Origin: a virus
Lineage: Duplodnaviria; Heunggongvirae; Uroviricota; Caudoviricetes
Virus record (IMG/VR): IMGVR_UViG_2693429623_000007
Reading direction: 5' to 3' (one strand)
Length of the DNA: 7,648 bases
Below the pieces are notes generated by a model. That model ran no database searches. It saw only the letters and a list, made by a program, of their open reading frames with translations, and was not told the DNA's origin. The translations under genes and the position numbers were made by a program. Numbering within the stretch: position 1 is the stretch's first letter; each line of letters opens with the position of its first letter. Positions 1 to 7,608 of this stretch are shown here, one piece after another.

Positions 1-155
1 ACCTGGACAATATCCTGAAAGCACCACTGGATGCGCTGACGCATGCCGGACTACTCATAGACGACGAGCAGTTTGATGAAATCAATATTGTGCGCGGTCA
101 GCTCGTTCCTGGGGGGCGGCTGGGCGTGAAGATTTACAAAATTGAGAGTGAGTGA
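1..155 (+). CDS. rusA: Holliday junction resolvase RusA, 3' end (5' partial; starts upstream of window)
   Basis: Frame from nt 3 translates to LDNILKAPLDALTHAGLLIDDEQFDEINIVRGQLVPGGRLGVKIYKIESE*, stop TGA 153-155. Matches the C-terminal region of E. coli RusA as I recall it (DLDNL..DAL..AG...DD...GGRL); recall-based, not searched. Confidence 0.8.
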   Translation, partial: LDNILKAPLDALTHAGLLIDDEQFDEINIVRGQLVPGGRLGVKIYKIESE

Positions 156-706
156 TCGTAAATATGATATATCCGGAAATTACAGGCAAAAGCGGCGAGC
201 ATTTACGTCTAAAAACGCTGGAAGCCGTCTGGATCCAGGGGAAATTACGGATGTGGGGGCGTTGGTCGTATATAGGTGGTGGCAAACCAGGAAATATGTT
301 CAATCAGTTGCTGGCATCCAAAAAACTGACAAAAACCGCGGTCAATGAAGCCCTGCGTAGAATCAGGGAGTCAGGGATTGATAAACCAGAGCTGGAAGCA
401 TTCTTGCGAGAGATGATCGCTGGCAGACAGAAGAGCTGGTTGTCTCACTGTACTGATGCAGAGGCGTTACGCATTGATGGGGTGATAAGTAAAGCGCTTG
501 CACGTTATCCTGGATTGATTGATATCCTGCGGCAAAGGTACGAAGGGCGGGGGATGAGTAAACGCAAAATGGCTGAATTGTTGAATGAGGTGCACCCGGA
601 ATGGTGTTTTAGTACATGCGAAAAGCGAATTGCTAATTGGTTGGCTGTTGCTGAATATGCGCTATACATCCCTATGCGAGAATCGTTTGCTCAAAAAATG
701 TCTTGA
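152..706 (+). CDS. Putative late-gene antiterminator Q (non-lambda Q family), assigned mainly by synteny
   Basis: 184-aa ORF directly after rusA (GTG 152 overlaps the rusA stop as GTGA; alternative ATG at 164), followed by a promoter-like element and an intrinsic terminator. Contains a W-G-x-W stretch (LRMWGRWS) reminiscent of DLP12-type Q proteins. Family call is uncertain. Confidence 0.55.
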   Translation: MIVNMIYPEITGKSGEHLRLKTLEAVWIQGKLRMWGRWSYIGGGKPGNMFNQLLASKKLTKTAVNEALRRIRESGIDKPELEAFLREMIAGRQKSWLSHCTDAEALRIDGVISKALARYPGLIDILRQRYEGRGMSKRKMAELLNEVHPEWCFSTCEKRIANWLAVAEYALYIPMRESFAQKMS

Positions 707-731
707 TTTTTTACGCATAAACTGTTTCAAT
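703..731 (+). promoter_or_regulatory. Candidate late promoter (pR'-like) downstream of the Q-like gene
   Basis: TTGATT (703-708), 17-nt spacer, TTCAAT (726-731) preceded by TG at 723-724 (extended -10 like). Lies about 60 nt upstream of an intrinsic terminator, the arrangement expected for pR'/tR'. Confidence 0.4.
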
Positions 732-790
732 CCAGCTACGCTTCGCAAAGCTATACCGCGAGGCGAATAGCAGACATGGACACCTGAAAG

Positions 791-814
791 AACCCGCTTT
801 ATGCGGGTTTTTTT
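791..814 (+). terminator. Rho-independent terminator (tR'-like)
   Basis: Stem cccgc (793-797), loop tttat, stem gcggg (803-807), then seven T's (808-814). Confidence 0.7.
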
Positions 815-937
815 GTGCCCGAAAAGCGGTACAGGACGTTAAATGCGCTGGTGGTTGCGAATGCCGGTCTTTCAGCTTGCTGGCTTTTTCGACAAGAGGT
901 ATTGGTATGTCACGTTAACCGGAAAAGGGAAAAAGGC

Positions 938-1135
938 ATGCTAAAACAGCAGGATATGACCGAAACCGCCAGAGTGGTGTTTAATGAATTAAGCGTCACC
1001 GAACCGGCGACCGTCGGGGAAATTGCGCAGAATACTTACCTTTCACGCGAACGCTGCCAGTTAATCCTGACCCAGCTTGTTATGGCGGGTCTGGCAGATT
1101 ATCAGTTCGGTTGTTACAGACGCCTTCCGCAGTGA
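938..1135 (+). CDS. Small hypothetical protein (65 aa), possible helix-turn-helix DNA-binding protein; allele 1
   Basis: ATG 938 preceded by purine-rich aaaagggaaaaagg. The longer track ORF from 815 would start inside the terminator region, so the internal ATG is preferred. Product MLKQQDMTETARVVFNELSVTEPATVGEIAQNTYLSRERCQLILTQLVMAGLADYQFGCYRRLPQ; the stretch ATVGEIAQNTYLSRERCQLILTQL looks like an HTH. A near-identical allele is at 1826-2023. Confidence 0.6.
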   Translation: MLKQQDMTETARVVFNELSVTEPATVGEIAQNTYLSRERCQLILTQLVMAGLADYQFGCYRRLPQ

Positions 1136-1144
1136 AGGCTTTTT
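1122..1144 (+). terminator. Rho-independent terminator overlapping the stop codon of the 65-aa gene
   Basis: Stem gccttc (1122-1127), loop cgcagt, stem gaaggc (1134-1139), then five T's (1140-1144). The same structure recurs at about 2009-2033 and 2201-2223. Confidence 0.5.
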
Positions 1145-1184
1145 AATTTGTGGTAATGGGCGGCTGGTGGGTGTTAGCGGCNTC

Positions 1185-1601
1185 CAGTATCCGGATGGTA
1201 AGCCGCCGGTATGGGCAAAGTGTACGAAAGGTGTGTATCCGTCTTACTGGGAAGAATGGAAAAAAGTCAGGGAGGTGGTAAAAGTTGCCTGTCCGGAGTG
1301 TGGCGGAAAGGGTGAGGTTTCCACCGCCTGTAAGGATTGCCGTGGGCGTGGTGTCGCCATTCATCGTGAAGAGTCGGTAAAACGTGGTATGCCTGTTATC
1401 AGAGACTGCCAGCGTTGTGGTGGTCGTGGCTATGAAAGACTACCATCAACGGAGGCATTTAATGCTATATGCGAGGTGACAAACCAGATAACACGCGCGT
1501 CATGGGAAAAAACAGTTAAGAAATTTTATGATGCGCTGGTGACCCGGTTTGATATTGAAGAAGCATGGGCTGAGCGGCAGTTAAAAAAGGTAACTAGGTA
1601 A
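1185..1601 (+). CDS. Lambda-type antiterminator Q, C-terminal fragment (5' truncated at the junction n at 1182)
   Basis: Translation contains CPECGGKGEVSTACKDCRGRGVA...CQRCGGRGYERLPS...YDALV...KVTR*, matching the zinc-binding C-terminal region of lambda Q as recalled (CRDCHGTGRA...CGRCKGVGYSRMP...YDALV...AVTR). The first 35 codons of track ORF 1077-1601 lie in a repeat that is intergenic in the other copies, so the true N-terminus is missing. Confidence 0.75.
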   Translation, partial: QYPDGKPPVWAKCTKGVYPSYWEEWKKVREVVKVACPECGGKGEVSTACKDCRGRGVAIHREESVKRGMPVIRDCQRCGGRGYERLPSTEAFNAICEVTNQITRASWEKTVKKFYDALVTRFDIEEAWAERQLKKVTR

Positions 1602-1606
1602 CAAGG

Positions 1607-1634
1607 TTGATTTTTCCGGAATCTGTGGTAAATT
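1607..1634 (+). promoter_or_regulatory. Lambda-like late promoter pR'
   Basis: TTGATT (1607-1612), 16-nt spacer, TAAATT (1629-1634). The downstream text ggtaaattcgtcataacgatggg closely resembles the lambda pR' initial transcribed region (GGTAAATTTGACTCAACGATGGG, from memory). Confidence 0.65.
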
Positions 1635-1681
1635 CGTCATAACGATGGGCGTTTTATGCCTGACGTTAGAAGAGTTTCTAC

Positions 1682-1706
1682 AACCCGCCGCCGAGCGGGT
1701 TTTTTA
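1682..1706 (+). terminator. Rho-independent terminator tR' (lambda-like)
   Basis: Stem cccgc (1684-1688), loop cgccga, stem gcggg (1695-1699), then six T's (1700-1705); about 45 nt after the predicted pR' start. Confidence 0.7.
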
Positions 1707-1735
1707 TGACTGAAATCGCGTCAGTACAGTAAACG

Positions 1736-2112
1736 CGCTGGTGGCGGTGAATACCTGTCTTTCAGCTTGCTGGCTTTTTCGACAAGAGTTATTGGTGTGT
1801 CACGTTAACCGGAAAAGGAAAAGACATGCTAAAACAGCAGGATATGACAGAAACCGCCAGAGTGGTGTTTAATGAATTAAGCGTCACCGAACCGGCGACC
1901 GTCGGGGAAATTGCGCAGAATACTTACCTTTCACGCGAACGCTGCCAGTTAATACTGACCCAGCTGGTTATGGCGGGTCTGGCAGACTATCAGTTCGGTT
2001 GTTACAGACGCCTTCCGCAGTGAAGGCTTTTTTATTTGTGGTAAATGGGCGGCTGGTGGGTGTTAGGGGCACCCACCAGCCATCTGCTCATGCGTTGGGT
2101 TCACAAGCAAAC
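1736..2112 (+). repeat. Copy 2 of the duplicated unit containing the 65-aa gene
   Basis: Diverged allele of 848-1181; runs into the N gap at 2113. Confidence 0.8.
1826..2023 (+). CDS. Small hypothetical protein (65 aa), HTH-like; allele 2
   Basis: The track gives the same 65-aa protein as 938-1135; the DNA differs at scattered positions, implying synonymous changes. Same terminator at its stop. Confidence 0.6.
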   Translation: MLKQQDMTETARVVFNELSVTEPATVGEIAQNTYLSRERCQLILTQLVMAGLADYQFGCYRRLPQ

Positions 2113-2179
2113 NNNNNNNNNNNNNNNNNNNNNNNNNNNNNNNNNNNNNNNNNNNNNNNNNNNNNNNNNNNNNNNNNNN
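2113..2179. other. Assembly gap (67 N)
   Basis: Run of n; flanks are two copies of the same repeat unit. Confidence 1.
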
Positions 2180-2302
2180 ATCAGTTCGGTTGTTACAGAC
2201 GCCTTCCGCAGTGAAGGCTTTTTAATTTGTGGTAATGGGCGGCTGGTGGGTGTTAGCGGCACCTGCCAGCCATCTGCTCATGCGTTGGGGTCACAAGCAA
2301 AC
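2180..2302 (+). repeat. Copy 3 (partial) of the duplicated unit: last 11 codons of the 65-aa gene plus downstream
   Basis: atcagttcggttgttacagacgccttccgcagtgaaggc... matches 1102-1181 and 1989-2112. Confidence 0.8.
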
Positions 2303-2364
2303 CTCAGGCCCATCTGCTTTGCGCAAAAGCGGTATGAGCCTATCAGAGAAGTGCTTATTGATCT

Positions 2365-3070
2365 ATGGCCAATACTGTAAAAATATCCAGTTGTGAGTTA
2401 ATCAACGCTGATTGCCTGGAATTTATCCAGACCTTACCGGAAAATTCTGTCGATCTGATAGTCACAGACCCGCCATACTTTAAAGTGAAGCCCGAGGGCT
2501 GGGATAACCAGTGGGAGGGCGACGATGATTACCTGAAATGGCTGGACCAGTGTCTGGCGCAGTTCTGGCGGGTGCTGAAACCTGCCGGAAGTCTTTACCT
2601 GTTCTGTGGTCATCGCCTGGCATCTGATATCGAAATCATGATGCGTGAACGCTTCAGTGTGCTGAACCATATTATCTGGGCGAAGCCGTCCGGACGCTGG
2701 AACGGATGCAACAAGGAAAGCCTGCGGGCGTATTTCCCCGCCACAGAGCGCATTCTGTTCGCGGAACATTATCAGGGGCCGTATCGTCCGAAAGATGCCG
2801 GGTATGCGGCGAAGGGCAGTGCACTGAAACAGCATGTGATGGCCCCGCTGATTTCTTACTTTCGTGATGCGCGAGCTGCCCTGGGGATAACGGCAAAACA
2901 GATTGCAGATGCCACAGGAAAGAAAAACATGGTGTCGCACTGGTTCAGTGCCGGTCAGTGGCAGTTGCCGAATGAAAGCGATTATCTGAAATTACAGGCG
3001 CTGTTTGCCCGGGTGGCAGAAGAGAAGCATCGGCGTGGTGAACTGGAAAAGCTCCACCACCAGCTGGTGG
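2365..3070 (+). CDS. DNA N6-adenine methyltransferase, beta class, N-terminal 235 codons (3' end interrupted by N gap)
   Basis: MANTVKISSCELINADCLEFIQTLPENSVDLIVTDPPYF...; catalytic motif IV DPPY at 2467-2478. Track ORF 2365-3102 runs through the gap. The gene continues in the segment 3694-4037. Confidence 0.8.
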
Positions 3071-3081
3071 NNNNNNNNNNN
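3071..3081. other. Assembly gap (11 N)
   Basis: Run of n inside the methyltransferase reading frame. Confidence 1.
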
Positions 3082-3150
3082 TGGCACAGGGGCGCGAGCT
3101 AAAACAGCACGTCATGGCCCCGCTGATTTCTTACTTTCGTGATGCGCGTA
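3082..3150 (+). pseudogene. Isolated 69-bp internal fragment of a divergent methyltransferase allele, between two N runs
   Basis: Matches 2811-2878 with several substitutions in the first 30 bp; the segment ...catggccccgctgatttcttactttcgtgatgcgcg is shared. Confidence 0.6.
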
Positions 3151-3179
3151 NNNNNNNNNNNNNNNNNNNNNNNNNNNNN
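3151..3179. other. Assembly gap (29 N)
   Basis: Run of n. Confidence 1.
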
Positions 3180-4037
3180 GCGCAGTTCTGGCGGGTGCTG
3201 AAACCTGCCGGAAGTCTTTACCTGTTCTGTGGTCATCGCCTGGCATCTGATATCGAAATCATGATGCGTGAACGCTTCAGTGTGCTGAACCATATTATCT
3301 GGGCGAAGCCGTCCGGACGCTGGAACGGATGCAACAAGGAAAGCCTGCGGGCGTATTTCCCCGCCACAGAGCGCATTCTGTTCGCGGAACATTATCAGGG
3401 GCCGTATCGTCCGAAAGATGCCGGGTATGCGGCGAAGGGCAGTGCACTGAAACAGCATGTGATGGCCCCGCTGATTTCTTACTTTCGTGATGCGCGAGCT
3501 GCCCTGGGGATAACGGCAAAACAGATTGCAGATGCCACAGGAAAGAAAAACATGGTGTCGCACTGGTTCAGTGCCGGTCAGTGGCAGTTGCCGAATGAAA
3601 GCGATTATCTGAAATTACAGGCGCTGTTTGCCCGGGTGGCAGAAGAGAAGCATCGGCGTGGTGAACTGGAAAAGCTCCACCACCAGCTGGTGGATACGTA
3701 TACCTCACTGAACCGGCAGTATGCGGAGCTGCTGAGTGAATATAAACATCTGCGGCGGTATTTTGGCGTGACGGTGCAGGTGCCGTATACCGATGTGTGG
3801 ACGCATAAACCGGTGCAGTTCTATCCCGGGAAACATCCGTGCGAAAAACCGGCAGAAATGCTGCAGCAGATAATCAACGCGAGCAGTCGTCCGGGAGACC
3901 TGGTTGCAGATTTTTTTATGGGTTCAGGTTCAACGGTAAAAGCGGCGATGGCACTGGGGCGTTGTGCGATTGGTGTTGAGCTGGAGACCGGACGTTTTGA
4001 ACAGACAGTCAGGGAAGTTCAGGATTTAATCGTTTGA
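3180..4037 (+). CDS. DNA N6-adenine methyltransferase, beta class, codon approx. 65 to stop (5' truncated by N gap)
   Basis: 3180-3693 appears identical to 2557-3070 (514 bp). The C-terminal part carries the AdoMet-binding motif I, FFMGSGST. Motif IV before motif I is the beta-class order. Stop TGA 4035-4037. Reconstructed full gene is about 349 aa. Confidence 0.8.
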   Translation, partial: AQFWRVLKPAGSLYLFCGHRLASDIEIMMRERFSVLNHIIWAKPSGRWNGCNKESLRAYFPATERILFAEHYQGPYRPKDAGYAAKGSALKQHVMAPLISYFRDARAALGITAKQIADATGKKNMVSHWFSAGQWQLPNESDYLKLQALFARVAEEKHRRGELEKLHHQLVDTYTSLNRQYAELLSEYKHLRRYFGVTVQVPYTDVWTHKPVQFYPGKHPCEKPAEMLQQIINASSRPGDLVADFFMGSGSTVKAAMALGRCAIGVELETGRFEQTVREVQDLIV

Positions 4038-4098
4038 AACGGATGAGATTGCAGAATTAATTACGCACCATTATTATTCTGCTCCCGGCCCTTTAGCN

Positions 4099-4395
4099 CT
4101 GCGGCGGTATTTTGGCGTGACGGTGCAGGTGCCGTATACCGATGTGTGGACGCATAAACCGGTGCAGTTCTATCCCGGGAAACATCCGTGCGAAAAACCG
4201 GCAGAAATGCTGCAGCAGATAATCAGCGCTAGCAGTCGTCCGGGTGACCTGATTGCAGATTTTTTCATGGGGTTGGGTTCGACAGTGAAAGCGGCACTGG
4301 CGCTCGGGCGTCGTGCAATTGGCGTTGAGCTGGAGACTGAACGTTTTGAGCAGACGGTTCGGGAAGTACAGGATTTAGTCAGCCAGAACGGATGA
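4099..4395 (+). CDS. Methyltransferase C-terminal fragment, second allele (5' truncated at the junction n at 4098)
   Basis: In-frame from 4099. Product ...VTVQVPYTDVWTHKPVQFYPGKHPCEKPAEMLQQIISASSRPGDLIADFFMGLGSTVKAALALGRRAIGVELETERFEQTVREVQDLVSQNG* differs from the 3751-4037 allele by scattered substitutions and a 5-aa longer tail. Confidence 0.7.
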   Translation: MRRYFGVTVQVPYTDVWTHKPVQFYPGKHPCEKPAEMLQQIISASSRPGDLIADFFMGLGSTVKAALALGRRAIGVELETERFEQTVREVQDLVSQNG

Positions 4396-4435
4396 TATTG
4401 AAGAATTAATTACGCGTCGTTATTATGCGGCTCCC

Positions 4436-4511
4436 GGCCCTTTAGCTCAGTGGTGAGAGCGAGCGACTCATAATCGCCAGGTCGCTGGTTCAAATCCAGC
4501 AAGGGCCACCA
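4436..4511 (+). tRNA. tRNA-Ile2/Met, anticodon CAU (ileX/ileZ-like)
   Basis: Hand-folded cloverleaf: acceptor GGCCCTT/AAGGGCC, D arm GCTC-AGTGGTGA-GAGC, anticodon loop CTCATAA, T arm GCTGG-TTCAAAT-CCAGC, discriminator A, encoded CCA. Resembles E. coli ileX as recalled. Confidence 0.85.
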
Positions 4512-4698: not shown

Positions 4699-4723
4699 AG
4701 GCTCGCTTCGGCGGGCCTTTTTC
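4699..4723 (+). terminator. Rho-independent terminator after the tRNA cluster
   Basis: Stem aggctcgc (4699-4706), loop ttcg, stem gcgggcct (4711-4718, one G-U pair), then T-run to 4722. Confidence 0.55.
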
Positions 4724-4860: not shown

Positions 4861-5286
4861 ATGTTTGGTATTTTCAAAAAGAAAACCCGCAAGGCCATTA
4901 CCGAGGTGAAGAAGATGGAGAACCGTGACGCAGTGGAGGCGACCGTCTGGGGCGCGTACTCCATTGCATACGCTGACGGCACCTGTGACGCGAAAGAAAT
5001 CGCGGTACTGGAAAAAACCATTGCAGCACTTCCTGTCTTTGCGCCGTTCTCCGGTGAGATTGCACAAATGAGTGCAAATATCCGCGCCCGTTATGAAGCG
5101 TCGCCGCGTTCTGCCAATGCCGAAGCTCTTCGTCAGCTGGCTGATGTTGCCGGTACTGATGATGCAGTTAATGTGCTGTGCCTGTGTCTGGATATCGCTG
5201 ACCAGGACGGTATCGCTCAGGAAGAAGAAGCGCAACTGAAGAAAATTGCGCAGGCGCTGCAGTTGCCGCTGGAGCAGTACCTGTGA
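4861..5286 (+). CDS. TerB-like (tellurite-resistance TerB family) domain protein, 141 aa
   Basis: ATG 4861 with aaaaggaaaag upstream. Two internal half-repeats of the form A-x-A-DG...E...L..IA.AL (AYADGTCDAKEIAVLEKTIAAL and DIADQDGIAQEEEAQLKKIAQAL), the arrangement I recall for TerB. Family call is from memory. Confidence 0.55.
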   Translation: MFGIFKKKTRKAITEVKKMENRDAVEATVWGAYSIAYADGTCDAKEIAVLEKTIAALPVFAPFSGEIAQMSANIRARYEASPRSANAEALRQLADVAGTDDAVNVLCLCLDIADQDGIAQEEEAQLKKIAQALQLPLEQYL

Positions 5287-5435
5287 AAAGTGCGCGCCTT
5301 GTGCTGGCTGTCATCCTGTTGTTTCTGGTAGTGGTGGTTGATTTCACCGGACGACTGATGTCGGTGCTGGCAGATGGTGTGCTGGTGGCGATGGCGCTGG
5401 TCGTGCTCCGGCCTTTACTGCGTAAATCTGAATAA
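5283..5435 (+). CDS. Small hydrophobic protein (50 aa), putative membrane peptide
   Basis: GTG 5283 overlaps the upstream stop as GTGA; ggag lies 10 nt upstream. Product VKSARLVLAVILLFLVVVVDFTGRLMSVLADGVLVAMALVVLRPLLRKSE*. Below the 60-aa cutoff of the ORF track. Speculative. Confidence 0.35.
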   Translation: MKSARLVLAVILLFLVVVVDFTGRLMSVLADGVLVAMALVVLRPLLRKSE

Positions 5436-5444
5436 CATCACACA

Positions 5445-5481
5445 AAAGGCATCTGCGGATGCCTTTGACGGGGTGTTTTTT
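5445..5481 (+). terminator. Perfect 9-bp hairpin followed by a T-run; putative terminator or attenuator before the lysis genes
   Basis: aaaggcatc (5445-5453), loop tgcg, gatgccttt (5458-5466), then gacggggtg and six T's (5476-5481). Confidence 0.4.
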
Positions 5482-5520
5482 ACGGGTCGCTGGTGGCCCT
5501 TTTTTATTTTCAGGAGGAAG

Positions 5521-5914
5521 TATGTCTGAACCCTTATCCGGTTCCGGCACGGCTGCGGCGCTGGGGGGCGCGACGGTATTCGGGCTGTTTACCGGGATGG
5601 ATTTCGGGATTGTGTTTGGCGCGTTCGCCGGGGCGTTATTTGTGGCAACGATGCCGCAGTCACTTTCAGTCTGGCGCGTGGTGGCGCATTTTCTGGTGTC
5701 GTTTATTGTCGGCGTGCTGGGAGCGCGTGTGCTGTCAGCCTGGATTGCATCAAAAACAGGGTATGACGGTACATCAGCAGATGCGCTTTGCGCGGTGCTG
5801 GTCTCGGTGGTGTCGGTGAAGATTCTCTCGTTCATCCACCAGCAGGATATTGCATCGCTGGTGTCCGGTGTGTTCTCCCGCCTGCGGGGTGGAGGAGGCG
5901 GCAATGTTAAGTAA
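5521..5914 (+). CDS. Putative holin-like membrane protein (131 aa)
   Basis: ATG 5521 with strong SD caggaggaag. The track start at 5459 falls inside the upstream hairpin and is rejected. Gly/Ala-rich hydrophobic segments suggest about 3 TM helices by eye. It is the first gene of a cluster ending in an M15 endolysin. Atypical for a holin: the C-terminus is GGGGGNVK rather than strongly charged. Confidence 0.5.
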
Positions 5915-6179
5915 CCTTCCCGGATTGCTGAATGTGGCGTTATGCACGGTTATCGTGCTGACGCTCTTTTTTTATCGTCGCCGTGATTCCAGACATAAAC
6001 CGCTGGTGTCATGGCTGGCCTGGCTGCTGATGCTGCTGTATGCCTTTGCGCCCCTCAGCTATCTGTGTGGTCGCCCGTTAGCAACGGGCTGGCTGGAAGT
6101 GTTTTTTAACCTGCTGTTCTGCGTGCTGGTGATACGCGCACGCGGGAACGTCACAAAAATCTTTCCATTGTTGAGGTGA
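5904..6179 (+). CDS. Lysis-associated membrane protein (92 aa; second holin or antiholin candidate)
   Basis: ATG 5904 preceded by ggaggagg; overlaps the upstream stop by 11 nt. Product MLSNLPGLLNVALCTVIVLTLFFYRRRDSRHKPLVSWLAWLLMLLYAFAPLSYLCGRPLATGWLEVFFNLLFCVLVIRARGNVTKIFPLLR*, about 3 hydrophobic segments by eye. Stop TGA 6177-6179. Confidence 0.5.
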   Translation: MLSNLPGLLNVALCTVIVLTLFFYRRRDSRHKPLVSWLAWLLMLLYAFAPLSYLCGRPLATGWLEVFFNLLFCVLVIRARGNVTKIFPLLR

Positions 6180-6181
6180 AT

Positions 6182-6559
6182 ATGCCGGGTAAATTCAGAT
6201 TCAGCCGTCGCAGTGAAAAAAATCTGGAGGGTGTCAAACCACAGCTGGTTGCTGTAGTTCGCCGTGCGCTGGAGCTGACGGAGGTTGATTTCGGTATTAC
6301 GGAAGGCCTGCGCAGTAAGTATCGCCAGAAACAGCTGGTTGCGGAAGGGAAAAGCCAGACCATGAACAGCCGCCACCTGACCGGTGATGCGGTGGATGTT
6401 GTGGCCTACATTGGCAGTCAGGTGTCATGGGAGTGGCCTCTGTACGAGAAAATCGCACAGGCATTTAAGCAGGCTGCCGCAGAGCTGGGGATCGCTATCG
6501 AATGGGGCGGGGACTGGAAAACGCTGAAAGACGGACCTCACTTTCAGCTGAAGCGATAA
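6182..6559 (+). CDS. Endolysin, peptidase M15 family (L-alanyl-D-glutamate peptidase / VanY-like)
   Basis: ATG 6182 after gaggtg (the track uses GTG 6176). Putative zinc ligands in SRHLTGDAVD (H-x6-D) and DGPHFQL, as in T5-type endolysins (recalled). Directly follows two membrane-protein genes. Confidence 0.8.
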   Translation: MPGKFRFSRRSEKNLEGVKPQLVAVVRRALELTEVDFGITEGLRSKYRQKQLVAEGKSQTMNSRHLTGDAVDVVAYIGSQVSWEWPLYEKIAQAFKQAAAELGIAIEWGGDWKTLKDGPHFQLKR

Positions 6560-6566
6560 GTAAAAC

Positions 6567-6599
6567 AAAACCCCGGCTGGGGGAACAGTCCGGGGTTTT
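6567..6599 (+). terminator. Rho-independent terminator after the endolysin (3' side abuts N gap)
   Basis: aaaaccccgg ... ccggggtttt, a GC-rich stem with a 13-nt loop and four T's before the N run. Confidence 0.5.
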
Positions 6600-6823
6600 N
6601 NNNNNNNNNNNNNNNNNNNNNNNNNNNNNNNNNNNNNNNNNNNNNNNNNNNNNNNNNNNNNNNNNNNNNNNNNNNNNNNNNNNNNNNNNNNNNNNNNNNN
6701 NNNNNNNNNNNNNNNNNNNNNNNNNNNNNNNNNNNNNNNNNNNNNNNNNNNNNNNNNNNNNNNNNNNNNNNNNNNNNNNNNNNNNNNNNNNNNNNNNNNN
6801 NNNNNNNNNNNNNNNNNNNNNNN
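6600..6823. other. Assembly gap (224 N)
   Basis: Run of n between the endolysin terminator and the lipoprotein gene. Confidence 1.
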
Positions 6824-6857
6824 GCTGTTCTGATTTGGGCTGTGCGTTGGTGGTGAT

Positions 6858-7040
6858 ATGGCGCGAAAACACTGGACACACAGAATGCCGCGAACGGCGG
6901 TGAAACGGGCACTGGTAGCGATACTGGTGCCTTTTTTATTGGTGGGGTGCGTCAGCCTGGATAAGGCGCGCCAGCTTTTCGATACCGCGTCTCAGGTCTG
7001 TGAAATTGTCGACGGTGTTCGGCAGTGTCTGCAGAACTGA
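6858..7040 (+). CDS. Small lipoprotein (60-aa precursor); possible o-spanin (Rz1-like) or other outer-membrane lipoprotein
   Basis: ATG 6858 after ggtggtga. Basic N-region MARKHWTHRMPRTAVKR, hydrophobic core ALVAILVPFLL, lipobox LVGC. Mature part of about 37 aa with two further Cys. Not proline-rich as lambda Rz1 is, so the spanin assignment is weak. Confidence 0.45.
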   Translation: MARKHWTHRMPRTAVKRALVAILVPFLLVGCVSLDKARQLFDTASQVCEIVDGVRQCLQN

Positions 7041-7214: not shown

Positions 7215-7608
7215 ATGGAAAAAAACAGAAAACAAACCGATTGTAATTGGTGCTGATGCTGCTCCGTTTAAGTTTGAGTTGTCTCAACTGGTGGAGATGC
7301 GTATCAGTGATGAATGGGGTGAGGTTAAAGCCCGCGCGCAGTATGCGGATGGCGAAAACCAGTACTTGATCCACTACAAAGCAGCTGATGGTCGCGCCAC
7401 GACGGAGTGGTTTGGTGAGTCAATGCTGGAAGCAACAGAAGATGATCGTCATCCGGGTTGTCCGGTATTTGCCGGTATGAAATTACCGGAAGGTGCAGTT
7501 GAACTGCAGCCGGGTGAGGTGTTCGTAATGACAGACATCATTGATGGTAAACCGCAGTATTCGCGTATTGAAATGAATAGTAAGAGTGCTCGCCTGATTC
7601 GTGAGTAA
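7215..7608 (+). CDS. Hypothetical protein, apparently frameshifted at an A7 tract (7219-7225); uninterrupted frame runs 7279/7297-7608
   Basis: ATGATG at 7212-7217 with SD aggag at 7204-7208 opens a frame that stops after 14 codons. The long frame (W K K T E N K P I V I G ... ARLIRE*, stop 7606-7608) has no ATG until 7297 and no SD for the TTG at 7279 or the ATG at 7297. Removing one A from the tract fuses the SD-preceded start to the long frame, giving about 131 aa. Confidence 0.5.

Follow-up and report, generated by a model that had tools for sequence, protein, structure and literature searches.

Probable late-operon lysis cassette of a phiP27-type Escherichia coli prophage: a conserved pair of membrane proteins upstream of a predicted M15 endolysin

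The closest described relative of the lysis genes considered here is found in the Stx2e phage phiP27 (NC_003356; Recktenwald and Schmidt, 2002, cited in PMC12571312), which carries the genes L28 (holin), L29 (holin), and L30 (endolysin). We analysed the corresponding genes, hereafter g1, g2, and g3, in a stretch of 7,648 nucleotides (nt) of viral DNA (IMG/VR record IMGVR_UViG_2693429623_000007), which as a whole is referred to as the window and whose positions are used throughout. Window positions 5283-6600 are about 90% identical to phiP27 at the nucleotide level, and the two loci share the gene order and an 11-nt overlap of the first two genes, with amino acid (aa) identities of 85% for g1 and 98% for g2; in both, the cassette is placed after a methylase gene, tRNA genes, and a slot for moron genes. 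They differ in that the place of the TerB-like and DUF3927 genes of this window is taken by stx2e in phiP27, in the longer 5′ start annotated for L28, and in the region from the endolysin to the lipoprotein. Moreover, an annotated prophage of E. coli AST85 matches the cassette DNA at 100% identity; there, RefSeq labels the three products "putative holin," "phage holin family protein," and "M15 family metallopeptidase." The cassette is carried by 378 of the 5426 complete E. coli genomes (~7%), many of the closest being enterotoxigenic E. coli strains such as B7A and TW10590. The region is an already-known, ordinary annotated prophage lysis module, sequenced and annotated since phiP27, and very probably serves a lambdoid, phiP27-type E. 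coli prophage as its late-operon lysis cassette. An initial annotation of this DNA had regarded the cassette as unusual; given its identity with L28-L30, its RefSeq annotation, and its presence in 378 genomes, this view is not supported, and "non-canonical" is true only by comparison with lambda. The cassette, together with the TerB gene, is also found in a record named "Actinobacillus phage vB_Apl-pPE4" (PP818812.1), about 90% identical in nucleotides to E. coli prophages, for which the stated host looks doubtful.

The cassette consists of the following features.
5512-5517, plus strand: Shine-Dalgarno (SD) motif of g1, AGGAGG, visible in the sequence 4 nt before the ATG at 5522
5522-5914, plus strand: g1, 130 aa, Pfam PF16931 Phage_holin_8, RefSeq WP_001297664.1 "putative holin"
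5891-5898, plus strand: SD motif of g2, GGAGGAGG, inside Gly codons of the g1 tail and 5 nt upstream of the g2 ATG (5904)
5904-6179, plus strand: g2, 91-aa membrane protein, PF05449 Phage_holin_3_7 / DUF754, phrog_217, RefSeq WP_000950576.1 "phage holin family protein"
6173-6179, plus strand: SD motif of g3, GAGGTGA, overlapping the g2 stop codon
6182-6559, plus strand: g3, 125-aa soluble M15/LAS zinc peptidase, a predicted L-Ala-D-Glu endopeptidase endolysin

The three open reading frames (ORFs) can be taken as real and not as chance frames because their Pfam scores lie far above the cut-offs. g1 matches PF16931 with 82.6 bits (cut-off 26.4, E=3e-23) over model positions 1-121 of 121, g2 matches PF05449, the former DUF754, with 76.9 bits (cut-off 25.4, E=1e-21) over model positions 2-79 of 80, and g3 matches PF13539 (Peptidase_M15_4) with 49.3 bits (cut-off 25, E=7.5e-13). 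In PHROGs, g1 is assigned to phrog_198 (holin, E=3e-42), g2 to phrog_217 (holin, E=1.5e-38), and g3 to phrog_465 (endolysin, E=4e-75), while NCBIfam contained nothing matching g1 or g2. The g3 ATG lies 2 nt past the g2 stop, a gap that is the same in 130 of the 137 M15-carrying loci. Thus the three ORFs of the initial annotation exist, all on the plus strand and each with a strong family match, the overlap it gives for g1 and g2 is exactly 11 nt (5904-5914), and its description of a lysis cassette made of two membrane proteins and an M15 endolysin is borne out by the family matches and the annotated relatives. Its figures need small corrections, since the first gene starts at 5522 instead of 5521 and the lengths of 131 and 92 aa include the stop codon. 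A longer g1 ORF (ATG at 5459, 151 aa) was dropped, having no SD motif and containing a hairpin and T-run at 5484-5508; it is further ruled out by the Pfam model and the homologue alignment, which both begin at M5522.

Among other named lysis systems, that of the Burkholderia phage KS5 has the same succession of PF16931, PF05449, and endolysin (gp35 "putative antiholin," gp34 "holin (DUF754)," and gp33; PMC3091744), and there too the SD motif of the second gene lies within Gly codons of the first. However, the KS5 endolysin combines PG_binding_1 with an N-acetylmuramidase instead of M15, the overlap is 1 nt, clear Rz/Rz1 genes come next, and the phage, a myovirus, infects a betaproteobacterium. 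Phage P2 is similar in architecture only: its class I holin Y is a three-transmembrane-domain (TMD) protein of about 90 aa, and its 4-TMD antiholin LysA, which adjusts the timing of lysis, is a four-helix membrane protein of about 130-140 aa with a gene of its own, whereas the P2 endolysin gene lies between the two. Y matches PF04550 and not PF05449, and hhalign found no homology, giving a probability of 0.3% for the g1 alignment against LysA and 0.1% for the g2 alignment against Y. With lambda S105/S107-R-Rz/Rz1 the cassette would share a Q-dependent late operon and a holin of three TMDs in N-out/C-in orientation whose tail is cationic, as well as a soluble endolysin and an outer-membrane lipoprotein downstream. 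In contrast to lambda, it lacks the dual-start motif, that is, two in-frame N-terminal starts with a basic residue between them, as g1, g2, and all aligned homologues have a single Met start; it has a second membrane-protein gene instead. Furthermore, g3 is a peptidase whereas the lambda endolysin is a transglycosylase, no Rz-like inner-membrane spanin (i-spanin) was found in this cassette, and the Pfam search of g1 and g2 returned no lambda-S-family match.

The diversity of the g1-g2 pair was sampled by tblastn against annotated phages; scans of viral contigs turned up nothing beyond near-identical E. coli prophages. Wherever a phage record contained a g1-like gene (28 records), a g2-like gene lay directly downstream, and conversely the gene upstream of the PF05449 member belongs to PF16931 in 11 diverse phages. 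This includes seven phages in which tblastn saw g2 alone, yet the ORF preceding it belongs to PF16931: Salmonella F1055 and 118970_sal3, Klebsiella Seifer and KPN U2874, Pectobacterium MA11, Cronobacter ENT39118, and Edwardsiella EPP-1. An identical gene order is found in mEp390, HK639, and Yersinia vB_YpM_39, and in the Burkholderia P2-like myovirus KS5, where gp35 matches PF16931 (E=3e-30) and gp34 matches PF05449 (E=2e-19). When KS5 gp35 was used as the tblastn query, the g1 family extended to 271 phage records, including Pseudomonas D3 and PMG1, Ralstonia RSA1, and N4-like phages, and the KS5 g2 query reached 59. We fetched 172 sequences, 170 of which show both gene positions, and both genes are present in every one of these 170, with an overlap of 11 nt in 161 and of 14 nt in 5. 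In lambdoid, Casjensviridae, and P2-like phages, whose hosts are Gamma- and Betaproteobacteria, the g1-g2 pair is a conserved module that invariably lies upstream of a soluble endolysin. A scan of genome contigs with the g1 alignment yielded 4 loci only, two of them in implausible hosts; g1-like genes on contigs labelled "Bacillota bacterium MAG" (L172, 80% identity) and "Vagococcus sp." (L175, 46% identity) are most likely contamination by enterobacterial phage DNA.

The enzyme that follows this pair is variable. phiP27-type loci carry an M15 endolysin, mEp390, HK639, F1055, ENT39118, and sal3 a GH19 enzyme, Seifer, YpM_39, and EPP-1 a GH108+PG_binding_3 enzyme, and MA11, U2874, and KS5 an N4-type muramidase, and about 20 loci with holin pairs at least 95% identical to those of the window have a GH108-like enzyme in place of M15. 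Because the endolysin type is freely swapped, two membrane proteins plus M15 represent no special design but one of the mosaic forms that a common module takes. A hydrophobic N-terminus is missing from all 13 partner endolysins (within the first 50 aa, hydropathy over 17 residues peaks at 0.86 in g3 and does not exceed 1.10 in the 12 others), so none is of the signal-arrest-release (SAR) or secreted type. Hence the module must release folded cytoplasmic enzymes, which points to a large-hole holin system and not a pinholin/SAR one, the hole size being deduced from the enzymes that have to pass.

Weight had been put in the initial annotation on the GGGGG C-terminus of g1, seen as replacing the usual charged holin tail. 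The protein ends in ...SRLRGGGGGNVK (tail RLRGGGGGNVK), so that the glycine run is present as described, but the tail is not uncharged, as R120, R122, and K130 remain. The weight itself is misplaced, since the Gly codons are at the same time the SD motif of g2: the tail codons CGG GGT GGA GGA GGC GGC AAT GTT AAG TAA hold GGAGGAGG at 5891-5898. This dual coding, with Gly codons at the end of g1 spelling a GGAGG-type SD motif of g2, recurs in 11 of 11 diverse loci, a GGAGG-type motif is found in nearly all of the ~170 fetched loci, and the RGGGG tail is retained in g1 homologues down to 64% identity. Among the 11 diverse loci the overlap varies (14, 11, 4, or 1 nt) whereas the Gly-codon SD pattern is constant, as in the tails of mEp390 (RGGGASNGNK), Seifer (DIGGPK), EPP-1 (KGGGK), and KS5 (KGRDK; DNA aaggggaggga). 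The poly-Gly tail is best understood as the trace left in the coding sequence by an embedded ribosome-binding site (RBS) that couples g2 translation to g1, and it is no functional substitute for a charged holin tail. Since the g2 RBS lies within the g1 coding tail, any g1 deletion is polar on g2. In rare database proteins (P0025, P0094, P0119, P0120), g1 is fused to g2 (junction ...SRLR-VEEAAM-LSNL...). Programmed frameshifting was considered for these and rejected in favor of an indel of 1 nt within the run of G where the genes overlap, a fusion also being implausible in that the g2 N-terminus would sit on the wrong side of the membrane; the fusions are probably mutations or sequencing errors.

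Hydropathy delineates three hydrophobic segments in g2 (5-24, 33-54, 62-77), and the AlphaFold2 (AF2) model has three helices at a mean predicted local distance difference test (pLDDT) score of 64; hydropathy and AF2 secondary structure, the latter at low pLDDT, thus support the three transmembrane segments previously assigned to this protein. The charges (+4 in loop 1, RRRDSRHK; +1 in the short loop 2; +4 in the C-tail) fit an N-out/C-in topology, by which g2 is predicted to have the layout of a class I holin, namely three TMDs, N-out/C-in orientation, a short cationic C-tail, and a gene adjoining that of the endolysin. g1 has four helical hydrophobic segments, corresponding AF2 helices spanning 7-24, 28-43, 50-79, and 84-122 (mean pLDDT 57), and its most conserved part contains an uninterrupted Gly zipper, G21-G25-G29-G33-G37. 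Its charges would be compatible with a four-pass, N-in/C-in topology. With pLDDT values of 57 and 64 the AF2 models are too low in confidence for fold searches, and their secondary structure alone was used.

The assignment of g3 is supported by close relatives of solved structure. Aligned without gaps over 120 residues, g3 and ChiX of Serratia marcescens (PDB 5opz, E=7e-44) show 60% identity, and g3 also matches the phage T5 endolysin EndoT5 (PDB 2mxz) with E=8e-24 and Ply500 with E=3e-7. M15/LAS enzymes are recognized by zinc ligands in a His-x6-Asp motif plus a distal His, with the catalytic Asp three residues before the latter. All four active-site residues are present in g3 (zinc ligands H65, D72, and H120, catalytic D117, arranged as H65-x6-D72 and D117-G-P-H120) and align with H68, D75, D120, and H123 of ChiX. 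ChiX is a zinc LAS enzyme with L-Ala-D-Glu endopeptidase activity shown in vitro, and the phiP27 orthologue of g3 is among the listed M15_C orthologues of EndoT5. The N-terminus of g3 is not hydrophobic, the protein being signal-less and single-domain, and we predict g3 to be an M15/LAS L-Ala-D-Glu endopeptidase endolysin. The partners of the two relatives differ from those of g3, in that ChiX works with a lambda-S-type holin within a secretion system, and EndoT5 belongs to a virulent phage with an unrelated holin.

The late region has the order Q-like DUF1133 gene, DNA methylase, three tRNAs, moron slot, lysis genes, and terminase. In an identical locus (L001), terminase genes lie downstream of the cassette, in a prophage late region with terminase and portal genes. 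This position, after the Q-like gene, tRNAs, and moron slot and before terminase, fits a late lysis cassette. One further feature stands directly 5′ of g1.
5484-5508, plus strand: terminator-like hairpin and T-run, GGGTCGCTGGTGGCCC TTTTTTATTT, within the spurious 5′ extension of g1
A second terminator-like hairpin with T-run is located at 4699-4718, directly past the tRNA cluster, and the two are consistent with control of the lysis genes by Q-dependent read-through, as in an antiterminated late operon. The moron slot (4861-5435), between the tRNAs and the holin genes, holds a TerB-like gene (141 aa) and a DUF3927/TciB-like membrane peptide (50 aa). At the same position phiP27 has stx2eAB, and in a relative (L064) LT-II-like enterotoxin genes lie downstream of the endolysin.

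Downstream of g3, four features can be recognized in the window.
6571-6599, plus strand: GC-rich, terminator-like hairpin (CCCCGG...CCGGGG) after g3, with its T-run cut off by the N run
6600-6823, no strand: run of 224 N, which in the identical locus covers most of a 37-57 aa ORF with a C-terminal TMD
6824-6856, plus strand: visible 3′ end (...AVLIWAVRWW, then stop) of a small membrane-protein ORF, preceding the lipoprotein gene
6858-7040, plus strand: 60-aa lipoprotein, lipobox LLVG/C without Asp at +2, mature part of 30 aa with 3 Cys, phrog_7528
The complete hairpin and T-run are seen in L001 at 7293-7320. The lipoprotein gene begins 1 nt past the stop of the small membrane ORF, and both persist downstream of either endolysin type. 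Having a lipobox and adjoining the endolysin, the product of 6858-7040 has the marks of an outer-membrane spanin (o-spanin), and it is the orthologue of the phiP27 o-spanin listed by Kongari et al. (2018), where that protein figures as the shortest o-spanin known. In that survey the phiP27 pair has the shortest periplasmic span among two-component spanins, 62 residues, and its i-spanin is a 64-aa ORF with a TTG start overlapping an antisense 90-aa ORF (Kongari et al., 2018). A counterpart of this i-spanin ORF was not found in the present locus, and in L001 (7318-7707) the sole ORF between g3 and the lipoprotein gene is the one of 37-57 aa, whose only TMD is C-terminal.

From these features a course of lysis can be proposed, in which a polycistronic, Q-dependent late transcript would carry g1, g2, and g3, translation being coupled by the g2 start 11 nt inside g1, from its Gly-codon SD motif, and by the g3 start 2 nt past g2. 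g1 and g2 would then accumulate in the inner membrane and jointly give the holin function, with holes wide enough to let a folded enzyme leave the cytoplasm. Provided that the pair is the holin system, one of the three arrangements of roles discussed here almost certainly applies. How the work is divided is a more delicate matter, and we tentatively propose, at somewhat short of even odds, that g2 is the class-I-like hole former and g1 a conserved timing or co-assembling partner, either antiholin or co-holin. For KS5, Lynch et al. (2010; PMC3091744) called the DUF754 protein a holin and the protein upstream of it a putative antiholin, by analogy with P2 LysA, and in the record of Klebsiella phage Seifer both proteins are labelled "hypothetical Holin-antiholin." The split into holin and antiholin offered in the initial annotation is the same prediction that the annotators made for KS5 and Seifer.

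The only experiment found was made in porcine Shiga toxin-producing E. coli, in which a 130-aa "holin" gene downstream of stx2e was replaced by a kanamycin cassette, abolishing the enrofloxacin-induced (SOS) release of Stx2e; supplied in trans, the gene brought release back and also rendered two non-responsive strains capable of it, and the authors proposed a holin-assisted release of Stx2e (PMC12571312). Mapping of the primers of that study demonstrates that the cloned gene is exactly the g1 orthologue and that the deletion spans the whole of g1 (equivalent to window 5522-5914), the downstream homology arm starting 1 nt past the g1 stop. Because the deletion removes the SD motif and ATG of g2, the published knock-out is effectively a g1-/g2- double mutant, and judging by the primer sequences the kanamycin ORF would run into g2 out of frame. 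Several points weigh against g2 as hole former with g1 as its partner and against the lysis scheme around it. That g1 alone complemented a g1-/g2- mutant favors g1 as an active pore former and weakens the assignment of g2 as holin and g1 as antiholin. The topologies depend on hydropathy and the positive-inside rule, as the AF2 models are of low confidence. A canonical i-spanin (N-terminal TMD plus a periplasmic domain of tens of residues) was not found after g3 in L001, the same region of the window being N-masked, and a terminator-like hairpin stands between g3 and the lipoprotein gene. Lastly, no lysis assay of the g1-g2 pair was found in the searchable literature, nor did literature on the Pfam/InterPro family names, mEp390, HK639, and Seifer contain a functional study of it.

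The complementation result argues against g1 as a pure antiholin or mere inhibitor, and it is one ground for a different arrangement, possible yet doubtful, in which g1 is the actual holin that permeabilizes the inner membrane alone and g2 an antiholin or accessory timing factor: a clone with g1 only restored Stx2e release although the knock-out had lost the g2 SD motif and ATG. The N-terminal Gly-zipper half of g1 is, besides, much better conserved across phages than g2 (271 against 59 records with the KS5 queries). However, the read-out was toxin measured by enzyme-linked immunosorbent assay (ELISA) in overnight supernatants under high-copy overexpression, and not lysis timing or hole formation, g2 has the textbook class I layout and sits directly upstream of the endolysin, and the annotators of relatives assigned the roles the other way round. 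Two-component holins are exemplified by gp24.1/gp26 of Bacillus phage SPP1. An obligate heteromeric holin of this kind, of which neither g1 nor g2 suffices at native levels, seems equally possible yet doubtful here; strict co-occurrence and fixed order across no fewer than three morphotype lineages of phages infecting Gamma- and Betaproteobacteria speak for it, and the conserved coupling through the embedded SD motif would fix the stoichiometry. Yet g1 alone gave a phenotype in trans, and strict co-occurrence is equally expected of a holin/antiholin pair.

A role outside lysis has also to be weighed, namely that the cassette is a domesticated, non-lytic protein-release system resembling the type 10 secretion system (T10SS), as in Serratia ChiWXYZ, and exports the products of neighbouring morons. 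The best solved homologue of g3, ChiX, is indeed the endopeptidase of a holin/endopeptidase secretion system, toxin genes adjoin the cassette in relatives (stx2e in phiP27, LT-II-like genes in L064), and the proposal of holin-assisted Stx2e release points the same way. But a T10SS consists of a lambda-S-family holin and an M15 endopeptidase with co-regulated secreted cargo outside a phage, and this locus does not have that composition: homology is confined to the endopeptidase, ChiW is a member of the lambda S family, to which neither g1 nor g2 has a Pfam match, and thus no relative of these two proteins, the cassette stands in a prophage late operon with terminase and portal genes next to it, and the morons of the window are TerB-like and DUF3927 genes and not secreted toxins. 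The same module, moreover, occurs in the bona fide plaque-forming phages mEp390, HK639, Seifer, and KS5, and we regard a release system as very improbable. Somewhat less remote, although still improbable, is a composite scheme in which g1 and g2 form an obligate stoichiometric holin with the Gly-zipper g1 as pore core, g1 alone would act as a sub-lytic conduit for toxin-moron products (Stx2e, LT-II), and the outer membrane would be breached without a canonical spanin, through the 30-residue lipoprotein only.

Some peculiarities of the left part of the window lie apart from the lysis genes. The first tRNA gene, at 4436-4511, is called Met (CAT) by ARAGORN and tRNA-Ile (ileZ) in RefSeq and phiP27, the usual case of a lysidine-modified CAT anticodon. 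Only about 2.45 kb in complete E. coli genomes corresponds, in six pieces, to window positions 1-4500, which contain direct repeats of 81-300 nt (85-100% identical) with N runs between them, the Q-like region, a 65-aa ORF, and the DNA methyltransferase each being present two or three times. This duplication has the look of an artefact of scaffolding, or of prophage paralogues that were collapsed, and not of biology.

For work on mechanism, the practical meaning of these results is that g1 deletions are polar on g2, that the published knock-out is effectively a double mutant, and that the soluble endolysin partners point to large holes. More broadly, the PF16931/PF05449 pair is among the commonest lysis modules of proteobacterial temperate phages, and it adjoins Stx2e and LT-II toxin genes.

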